From: a virus
Lineage: Duplodnaviria; Heunggongvirae; Uroviricota; Caudoviricetes
Length of the DNA: 23,072 nt
Virus record (IMG/VR): IMGVR_UViG_2667527789_000007
Span: 1-23,072 of that record
Direction: 5' to 3' (one strand)
Shown: piece after piece, positions 9,001-12,000 of the stretch
How the letters are laid out: each line of letters opens with the position of its first letter
How positions within the stretch are numbered: position 1 is the stretch's first letter
Made by a program: the position numbers

Positions 9001-12000
9001 GGGTGGAAGTAAAGGCGGTGGTGATACCAAAGTAAAACCAACAGCAGCGCAAATAGCGCAGGAAGAAGTGGCCTGGAAAGGGTGGCAGGATTATCAAAAA
9101 ATCCTCCGTCCGGCAGAAGATAACTTCATGGAAAAGGTCGATGACCTGAACAGTGAGCAGCAGTACGAAAATATCGCTGGCACAACAAATCTTGGTTATC
9201 AGAAACAGTTTGGTGAAGCGCGAAGGGAGCTGGCGGGTAATCTTGCTCAGTCCGGCGTTGACCCATCCAGTGGTCGTTTTAATGCGGTAATGGATGCAAA
9301 TCAAAGCGACCAGGTGACCGGGCAGATTGACACAACCACACGGGGGCAGGTGTCGCAGGCAGATAAGTATGTTGCCGGGCTACAGGATGTTGCTGCTCTC
9401 GGTTCTGGTCAGAAGGCGGATGCGTTACAGAGTTTTAACTCTCTGGCAGACAGCAGTCTGGCAAAAGCTAAATCGGATGCACAGGCGGCGTTTACGAAAC
9501 AGCAGGGGCGAGCCTCTCTTGTTGGCGCTGGTCTGGGTGCGGCAGGTGCATATGTGATGCATAAGGCTGGCGGTAGCGGAGGAAGTGGCGGTGCTAAAAC
9601 ACCTGGCACTGGCGCTAATGCCATTCAGCATCAGGCTCAGAACTGGAGACTGTGATTATGGAGTACGGTAAATACGAAACACTTGCAAGATACGGTTATA
9701 CCGGAGCAGCCCGCCCTCAGGGGGACTGGCAGACATCCGCAGCGCTGACCCGCCAGCAATACGACGACTGGCGCACCAGATATTTACCCCGTGTAGCAAG
9801 GCTGGCTGACCTTGGGGAGAACAACAGTCTGATGAATGCACAGCTTGCACGGGTGGGAGGCCTTGCCACTTCCAGTCTCCGTACAGCGCAGATGGCGCAG
9901 GATAACCAGATGGCGAGATACGGGGTAAACCGCCCGGATAATCCCGACAGTAATACGCTGGGGTTACGTAATGCCCTGGCAATTGCTGGCGCGAAAAATG
10001 GTATCCGTGAAGCCGAACAGGATCGCCAGATGAATATTCTGACGGGGGCTTCTGCACCGGCAAGACAGAAACTGAGTGTTGGCGGCCAACTGGTGGCAGC
10101 GTAAGGGGGCAATATGGGATACGGTTTACTGGATATTGCAAATCAGTCGCGGCGTGAGGCATTACAGGGAATAAGTGACGCAGACAGACGACGCACAGAG
10201 ATTGAGGCATCAAATAAACAACTGGCTGCTCAACAGAAAGCTCAGAAAAAACAGAATATCGGTACGGGCATTGGTACGGGGGCGGCTATTGGCGCATCCG
10301 TTGGTGGTCCTGTTGGCGCTGTTGCTGGTGCAGTAATTGGCGGCATTGCTGGTTCTTTGTTTTAAGGAGTGGTGAATGAGCGGATTTGCACAGGGGTTAC
10401 TTGCCGGATTCAGCACTGTTGACCAGGCAATGACCCGTCGTAAGGAGCTTGGTTTGCGAGAAGCACAGCTTGCTCAGCAACAGAAAAATAACGAGCGCGA
10501 TTTTGAATTTGCGCAGTCTCAGTTTGAACATAATAAAGACGTTGATCAGCGGAACTTTGATTACAGAGCCAAAGTTGATGACCGCAATTACACACTGCAG
10601 GAAAGGGAGTTTAACGCCAACCAGAATTACCGGAATGCGTCGCTGGGGATGGAACAGCAACGACTCCAGTTGCAGAAATACAACCAGCGACGGCTTGAGT
10701 ATAACGATATGCTGGCGCGCGATCAGCCTGTGATGGCGGCGCTGGGAAAAGCGATTGATGCGGGTGACCATGATGCGGCTTCTCATCTGTTCGGTAAATT
10801 ATCGGACGCCAATCCGCTTAAGATGATGTCAACGGTAGGCTATGCTGCGAAAGCGGGTCAGGCCGTGAACAACCTGCAGAAAATCTTTGATGATAAGCCG
10901 GACAGGGCGATTGCTTCGCTGAATACCCCGGAAAATCTCGATGTGCTTTCCGGCGTGTTTGCCCCGGAACTACAACAGCGTATTGGCATGCCTGATTCAA
11001 CCGGGGAGAAAACGATAAAAGAGGCCAGGATTGGCAGTATCGTACCGGCGCAGCAGGAAGGGTACGTACTTATTGGCCTTGATCTCACATACAGCGATGG
11101 CTCCACCGCGCATAAACCTGTAACAGAATACGGCAGTGCGCACCCTGATGATCAAACCGTGCTGGCGATACCCGTTGATAAGGCTATCGCTCAGGTCAGG
11201 GATCGCAGCAAATTTGCAGAGATATCGAAAAATTATGGTTATTTTATGCCGAAGCAGCAGGGACTTTCTCTGAAAGAGCTTCAGAAGGGGGCCAGCAACG
11301 TAGCGGCGGACGCGATCAAGAATGGCGGTAATGCTCAGGCTGCGGTGGATGAATATTATGCTGCGACTGGTTCACAACCGCATCAACAGAAAATTCAGCA
11401 ACAAAAACTTCAGCAACAGGTTATCAACTGGGCGGGAGATGATCCTGATAAGCTGTCATTTGCCAGAAATGTAGCGGCCCGTCAGCCTGAAATGCTGGAA
11501 CCTCAGAATCAGAAATTGCTGGAGAACGGGTATGCGAATTTTCTCCGTATTCAAAAGGCCAGGGGGGAACAGGCCAGAGATGAAAGTGCTTCATCTGCAT
11601 CTCAGTTTATCCGTGGACTGAAACAGAATTACGCCCAGTAATTCACGATATTCCATTAATACCATTTCCTGATGCCCGGCCATTGTGCCGGGTTTTTTTA
11701 TGGAGTCTGTATGGCCTATTCAGAGGAACAGCGTCCTGAGGCGCAACTCGGTAACCAGAATCGTAACAGCCTGAACATTCAGCAACCCGGCGAAACTGAC
11801 AGCTATGAATCATTTTTCTCTAATCCGAATCGCTGGAAGGATAACAGTACGTCGTTCAGCCTGGGCGATGTATTGCCAACAATGGGTAAAGGTTTCGCCC
11901 AGTCCGTCCGGGGAACAGGGGAAATGGCCCGTGGACTCGGTGATGCGATGATTCAGAGCCCGGTAAAAACAGGGGCGCGTATTTTAAATGAGTTCAGCCG

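Follow-up and report, generated by a model that had tools for sequence, protein, structure and literature searches.

The late operon of Shiga-toxin (Stx) phages is driven from pR' through tR' by Q antitermination, and without Q, in the lysogen, transcription stops (PMC7547250). The DNA considered here, 23,072 nucleotides of IMG/VR virus record IMGVR_UViG_2667527789_000007 (positions 1 to 23,072; this whole stretch is referred to as the window), belongs to a 933W/Sp5-like Shiga-toxin podophage and forms its late region, and the element in question is an intrinsic terminator at 11674-11699 on the + strand, directly upstream of the ribosome-binding site of the largest Stx-phage gene, referred to as the giant gene. 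The pR'-qut-tR' arrangement with Q, known from lambda, H-19B, 933W and Sp5, belongs to the same phage group and the same operon, and there too a terminator must be overridden for the late genes to be expressed. The tR' terminator, however, is a promoter-proximal regulatory switch that yields the StxS/6S RNA, whereas the 11674 terminator lies ~30 kb downstream, between virion genes, at no decision point and with no known RNA product.

Other described systems share some of its features. Terminators closing morons in lambdoid prophages, for example after lom and bor, are said to have been described by Juhala and colleagues in 2000. Like the 11674 element they are sense-strand, intrinsic and internal to the late operon, where they confine Q-independent transcription in the lysogen, and the terminator after lom in this window, at 6520, is one of them; they flank accessory genes, however, while the 11674 terminator is flanked by the conserved essential virion genes ORF79 and ORF80 (Sp5 numbering), the downstream one without a promoter of its own. 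In phage T7, the terminator T-phi lies between gene 10 and gene 11 and acts, with partial efficiency, on T7 RNA polymerase; further promoters follow, and there is no antiterminator. The two cases are alike in that a terminator stands between structural genes and downstream virion genes depend on read-through, and unlike in that the 11674 terminator implies host polymerase and a processive antiterminator. The Hfq-binding small RNAs (sRNAs) of enterohaemorrhagic Escherichia coli prophages (the EcOnc series, AsxR, AgvB, StxS) have in common with it a GC hairpin with a U tail, a generic Hfq-binding module, as well as a location in Stx prophages; unlike these, the 11674 position has no listed Hfq-CRAC peak. 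The mechanism is textbook lambdoid biology, and the 11674 terminator is largely ordinary lambdoid-phage design, adding no new mechanism. What appears, from comparison of loci, to be a new detail is the constant association of a terminator with the giant gene across divergent lineages.

A canonical terminator before the giant gene

Read directly, the sequence at 11670-11713 is TGAT-GCCCGGC-CATTGT-GCCGGGT-TTTTTT-AT-GGAG-TCTGT-ATG. The terminator hairpin (GCCCGGC / CATTGT / GCCGGGT; 11674..11693, +) pairs 11674-11680 with 11687-11693 in a stem of seven pairs, six of them G-C and the closing one G.U, around a loop of 6 nt; the T7 (U7) tract, 11693..11699 (+), takes the closing base of the stem as its first T and has 7-9 T in relatives. 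The Shine-Dalgarno sequence GGAG (11702..11705, +), annotated as a ribosome-binding site (RBS) in phage P27, stands 5 nt 5' of the ATG at 11711, and the whole distance from the T run to this ATG is 11 nt, too short for a promoter. The earlier note had described the same layout, with the U7 tract ending at 11699, and had argued that no promoter would fit between terminator and start codon; both points are borne out by the sequence.

The upstream late gene (10376..11641, +), a homologue of Sp5 ORF79/ECs1241 with 421 amino acids according to the list of open reading frames (ORFs) and the annotation of relatives, has its stop codon at 11639-11641, 32 nt 5' of the stem. The spacer between them (11642..11673, +; 32 nt) has a TTAA core that is conserved in alignments of relatives, and is long enough that a ribosome terminating at the upstream stop codon would not cover the hairpin: the terminator is in sense orientation, on the same strand as both flanking genes, and beyond the ribosome footprint of that stop codon.

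The folding energy of the hairpin is -13.1 to -13.6 kcal/mol, and the 35-nt segment has a z-score of -3.2, with 1 of 200 shuffles equally stable; minimum free energy and centroid folds of 11640-11725 (86 nt; z = -1.5) consist of the terminator stem and weak flanking pairs only. To count as strict, a terminator needed six or more stem pairs, five or more of them G-C, a loop of 3-8 nt and then an uninterrupted run of six or more T. Four sites in the window qualify, at 6520, 8957 and 11674 on the + strand and at 1610-1590 on the - strand, against a mean of 0.005 in dinucleotide-preserving shuffles (n = 200), an excess of ~800-fold. A consensus terminator scan also finds the 11674 site (7 pairs, 6 G-C, 6-nt loop, tail TTTTTTATGG). 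No terminator is annotated before the giant gene in the Stx-phage records inspected (Sakai, PQ600364, 933W, phi24B, Stx2-86 and P27).

Hairpin, T run, Shine-Dalgarno sequence and ATG are all kept in 52/52 close loci containing the junction, and the GGAGTCTGTATGGC block, in the Shine-Dalgarno region, is invariant in 52/52 close relatives. The hairpin occurs there as three alleles (GCCCGGC/GCCGGGT, ACCCGGT/GCCGGGT and GCCCGAC/GTCGGGC). Across 10 distinct variants, 100% of alignment cells are paired and two of the seven pairs are changed on both sides, from G-C to A-U; in a control in which the 3' partner was slid by 1-3 columns, pairing drops to 29-43%. By anatomy and conservation, the 11674 element is thus confirmed as a canonical, conserved intrinsic (Rho-independent) terminator. 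As judged from these alignments, the compensatory changes, together with the replacement of the hairpin by unrelated ones, in the same place, in five or more lineages, indicate purifying selection for the structure.

The replacement hairpins come from IMG/VR prophage contigs, unannotated, that were found with profiles of the ORF79 homologues and of the N-terminus of the giant protein; identity is 29-42% for the ORF79 homologue and 27-68% for the giant N-terminus. In each of these distant loci a hairpin precedes the giant gene, its T5-T8 run ending 12-24 nt 5' of the ATG. There are at least five stem types, and upstream neighbours differ between loci: GCCCGG/CCGGGC in L101 and L103; AGCCTGC/GCAGGCT in L108; GCCTCGCC/GCGGGGC in L110, L162-L164, L166-L168 and L172; AGCCTCA/TGAGGCT in L165, L169 and L171; and CCGC-TTCG-GCGG in L170. 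The most informative locus is L110, where the ORF79 homologue has a terminator of its own (4342-4368) and is followed by a 1-kb insertion with two minus-strand ORFs; a second + strand terminator (5337-5366) then stands directly 5' of the giant gene (ATG 5389), and since it lies beyond the insertion, the terminator has kept its association with the start of the giant gene. Further away, Vibrio phage D70 (L173, OZ195828; 3204-3281) has a terminator, a promoter-like TTCACC-17-TATGAT, an 85-nt spacer and then the homologous giant gene. Such deep conservation suggests that there may be selection to keep the gene silent when antitermination is lacking; gene size (8.3 kb) or an activity of the protein might be reasons for extra silencing pressure.

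These searches gave some further observations. The D70-type Vibrio phages are ~60 kb long, and the giant gene may there be a separate transcription unit. In L162-L168 and L172, a conserved block, ACGCGCTAAATTCCCCAAAGATACCAA, lies ~30 nt 5' of the hairpin (locus positions ~1420-1448), directly 5' of the terminator; it contains a weak promoter-like TTCCCA-17-TAAATT which, if active, would give a very short terminated leader, like a promoter-proximal terminator unit. A megablast of L101 against the phage collection gave no match. The lone match in a scan of genome contigs, on a 552-bp contig labelled Xanthomonas pisi, was set aside as too short for context and a possible contaminant.

Other identities were considered for the 11674 hairpin. 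It is not a bidirectional terminator, the minus strand having no T run after the hairpin; a stem of 7 bp is too short for an RNase III site; a riboswitch or attenuator leader was rejected for want of a competing fold and of any Rfam family at threshold. As for a known sRNA, the EcOnc list, drawn from uninduced Sakai, has no entry at this position.

The giant gene and its start codon

The giant gene (11711..20053, +; 2780 amino acids) is the homologue of Sp5 ORF80/ECs1242, of ST933Wp72 in 933W and of vb_24B_48 in phi24B, the product of which is gp47 in the numbering of a recent preprint. At 8.3 kb it makes up about 13% of the genome, and it is present in 186/186 related phage records. Its Pfam domains (LPD5, LPD1, MuF_C and LPD38) form a "polyvalent protein" architecture; the protein of the ORF79 homologue matched no Pfam family, and a homologue search with it gave only close E. 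coli relatives among the matches listed. ORF79 and ORF80 are each essential: deletion leaves DNA packaging intact, a post-packaging defect, and complementation in trans works (Mondal 2016, PMC5155283). In phi24B the giant protein has been detected in virions by proteomics, where it is described as abundant, and is proposed to be an ejection protein packaged in the capsid (cryo-EM/proteomics preprint, 10.64898/2026.04.10.717836). The possibility that the giant gene is itself a moron was rejected: no promoter of its own is predicted, its distribution is not patchy, and it is essential.

A mechanical ORF call takes the in-frame ATG at 11672, which falls inside the hairpin, as the start of the gene, and the annotated records are in conflict: 933W and phi24B start at the equivalent of 11672, whereas the equivalent of 11711, with an RBS, is the annotated start in Sakai, Stx2-86 and P27. 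ATG 11672 has no Shine-Dalgarno sequence and was rejected as the true start. Relatives differ in T-run length (7, 8 or 9 nt), which breaks the frame; the 11672 extension is therefore not conserved as a reading frame, and the start of the giant gene, on this comparative evidence, is ATG 11711. This was also the start assumed in the earlier note, and it is upheld by the T-run polymorphism and the Shine-Dalgarno sequence.

One further observation concerns the antisense strand of this gene. The Hfq-CRAC peak EcOnc36 (NC_002695.1 1301433-1301515, minus strand, 5/5 datasets) is antisense to the giant gene and is the only peak in it; in the window it falls at ~17079-17164 (-), ~5.4 kb downstream of the 11674 site, by an approximate mapping that assumes no offset between NC_002695.1 and NC_002695.2. 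ECs1242 ranks 17th among coding sequences by Hfq reads, most of them antisense.

The terminator within the Q-antiterminated late operon

The window is 97-99.6% identical to 186 Stx-converting Sepvirinae phages, including 933W, Sp5, phi24B and Stx2-86, with phiSTEC1589-Stx1c as the best match, and the region is present in 425/5426 complete E. coli genomes. Q itself lies outside the window. In PQ600364, the closest complete relative (99.6% identical), Q occupies 19189-19623, and the giant gene lies ~30 kb further on, at 49543 on the same strand. The genes in between, in order stx1, the lysis genes and those for terminase, portal and capsid, are without exception + strand, and 8 strict sense-strand terminators occur in this interval. 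The same-strand layout from Q to the giant gene is found in Sp5 and phi24B as well. A scan of the Sp5 late operon that began just past stx2 and ran to the end of the prophage gave 7 sense-strand intergenic terminators, after portal, major capsid, ECs1224, ECs1229 and lom and before ECs1238 and ECs1242, so that every gene after portal needs read-through. In 4/7 of them the T run ends 11-18 nt 5' of the next start codon. The tight spacing of terminator and RBS at 11674, which recurs at these other junctions, reflects the compact intergenic regions of the phage, and the arrangement singled out in the earlier note is a recurring one in this operon, not peculiar to the giant gene.

Promoter prediction on the + strand finds no sigma-70-like site from 9000 to 11711, the gap between terminator and gene included. 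Being essential for infectivity, the giant gene must nevertheless be transcribed, and expression by Q-type read-through of the terminator, as the same note had proposed, fits well. Published RNA-seq of phi24B after norfloxacin gives 7.30-fold induction for the ORF79 homologue and 5.63-fold for the giant gene, next to 8.3- and 7.0-fold for genes 44 and 45 (these being fold-changes from pooled libraries, not absolute levels, with p-values of 0.059 and 0.309). The values form a gradient, from 134 for S through 75/39 for terminase, 30 for portal and 15-22 for genes 39-41 to 5.6-8.3 for genes 44-48: induction falls off smoothly from the first of these genes to the last, and the terminator marks no step in it. 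For lom, an upstream gene with expression in the lysogen, the change in phi24B is only 3-fold. Together with the additional YadA-like and hok-like morons upstream in this phage (described below), it indicates that this stretch of the operon does see Q-independent transcription.

From these observations, our preferred explanation, which we hold to be fairly probable, is that the 11674 element is a functional Rho-independent terminator inside the Q-antiterminated late operon, stopping unmodified polymerase in the lysogen and overridden by Q-modified polymerase in lytic growth. Polymerase that was not modified by Q at pR', whether it came from moron or spurious upstream promoters or had leaked through earlier terminators, would stop at U11699, and in a lysogen the 8.3-kb ejection-protein gene would then stay untranscribed. 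After induction, Q-modified polymerase from pR', ~30 kb upstream, would ignore the 11674 terminator and ~7 other sense-strand ones, and the giant gene would be produced together with the other virion genes. Its translation would begin by de novo initiation from its own Shine-Dalgarno sequence and ATG, 2 and 11 nt past the U tract. We infer termination at U11699, read-through by Q-modified polymerase, and lysogen silencing as the selected function from the anatomy, the excess over chance, the covariation, the operon context, the negative promoter prediction, the fact that the gene is essential, and its co-induction across the site.

Several points weigh against this explanation. The 11674 site is already separated from the upstream morons by two strong terminators (6520 and 8957), and no promoter is predicted in 8982-11673, which leaves no obvious transcription for a third terminator to stop. 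That the giant protein would be toxic or costly in lysogens is an assumption. In D70 the junction combines a terminator with a promoter-like site, and the terminator could be inherited operon punctuation rather than a safeguard of lysogeny. The phi24B induction figures, moreover, are fold-changes and give no absolute measure of read-through.

It is possible, though we think it clearly less probable than the preferred explanation, that, rather than being generic punctuation of the operon, the terminator serves the giant gene specifically as a gate at its 5' end, kept directly before it in lineages down to ~28% protein identity, and that expression without an antiterminator is strongly counter-selected (for example because of toxic peptidase or effector domains), or alternatively that hairpin and U tract double as an element of translation or stability. 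The earlier note had suggested that the dosage of the gene is deliberately kept low or its expression confined to the lytic phase. Low dosage agrees poorly with an abundant virion protein and a smooth RNA-seq gradient; of the two ideas, lytic-phase confinement holds up better, given the deep conservation of the terminator.

Low dosage would also be the outcome if the terminator were a partial attenuator setting stoichiometry, with Q-modified polymerase sometimes terminating and the giant gene transcribed less than the genes upstream. T7 T-phi, which after gene 10 lowers the expression of downstream genes, is a precedent, and both the retention of a terminator before the giant gene in all relatives and the slightly lower phi24B induction downstream (5.63) than upstream (7.30) of it are in keeping with the idea. 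The fold-change falls steadily along the entire operon, however, with no step at 11699, the preprint calls the giant protein an abundant virion component, and lambdoid Q complexes strongly resist intrinsic termination; we regard an attenuator as unlikely.

Equally doubtful is a mainly post-transcriptional role, in which the hairpin would be a barrier to 3' exonucleases or a protective 5' stem after RNase E cleavage, and the U tract an S1/standby or Hfq site tuning translation, with termination secondary. A U-rich tract does adjoin the Shine-Dalgarno sequence or lie within ~14 nt of it in every clade, but its distance varies from 2 to ~14 nt, and is ~85 nt in the Vibrio phage. Sub-threshold Rfam matches are all to Hfq-binding sRNA families, but at 17-24 bits against gathering thresholds of 42-55 they reflect generic terminator shape. 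Some sense-strand Hfq-CRAC reads have been reported on ECs1242; the published orphan-peak list, which comes from uninduced Sakai, where the late operon is silent, has no EcOnc Hfq peak at the site, and the 86-nt region around it has no significant extra structure (z = -1.5).

Least probable is that the terminator is an inherited operon boundary without present function, its promoter lost in the lambdoid lineage and the hairpin persisting since Q makes it harmless: the promoter-like TTCACC-17-TATGAT between terminator and giant gene in D70 and the weak promoter-like block near the hairpin in a distant enterobacterial clade are compatible with such a history, but a neutral hairpin would decay, and what is seen instead are compensatory changes and at least five lineages with unrelated replacement hairpins.

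Neighbouring features and implications for Stx phages

The other strict + strand terminators of the window lie upstream. One follows the lom moron gene (5762-6496) at 6520..6545 (+). The other, at 8957..8982 (+), is a sibling of the 11674 element within the operon, with the stem GACCCTGC/GCAGGGTT and then T6, placed 16 nt 5' of ATG 8999 of the ORF76/ECs1238 homologue. Downstream, a weaker terminator-like hairpin, found in the consensus scan only, lies at 20515..20535 (+), ~460 nt after the giant-gene stop codon, and is faced by a minus-strand terminator-like hairpin at 20589-20567; it is probably the end of the late operon. The strict minus-strand terminator at 1590-1610 (CGGGGGT...GCCCCCG, T6) adjoins a short ORF on its own strand (1371-1616), with a + strand late gene on either side. 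A moron in reverse orientation or an sRNA is the probable identity.

Between lom and the ECs1237 homologue are a hok-like small ORF (6729-6869, +) and a YadA-like trimeric autotransporter adhesin of 398 amino acids (7220-8416, +; Pfam YadA_anchor and YadA_head). The region is AT-rich upstream, and Sakai Sp5 has only a 430-nt gap here, with similarly short gaps in 933W and phi24B; the hok-like ORF and the adhesin are probably extra morons. At the far end of the window, an Rfam match to the sok antitoxin RNA (21222-21393, -; 104 bits against a gathering threshold of 59) corresponds to the hokW-sokW type I toxin-antitoxin locus described for Sp5.

A further hairpin, ACGCCTGC-CTTAAAAA-GCAGGCGT followed by TTTGTTTTG (8607-8630, +), lies inside the ECs1237-like ORF at 8528-8905 and has counterparts in four of the distant loci (L101 1115-1136, L103 1314-1335, L108 1264-1285 and L110 1354-1375). 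The block of ~30 nt is nearly invariant (one G/T and one C/T difference) though the protein is only 54% identical, which points to a constraint at the nucleotide level, perhaps an intragenic terminator-like element or a DNA site.

For the Stx phages themselves, the comparison settles the start codon of their largest gene, which the 933W and phi24B records place inside the hairpin. It also draws attention to the punctuation of the Sp5/933W late operon by seven to eight intrinsic terminators, with the consequence that expression of virion genes, like that of Stx, would be strictly dependent on processive antitermination by Q. This dependence is relevant to the reading of RNA-seq from lysogens and to the engineering or attenuation of Stx phages. 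The presence of a terminator at the 5' end of every giant-gene homologue, finally, is a hint that the protein may be harmful outside the lytic programme.

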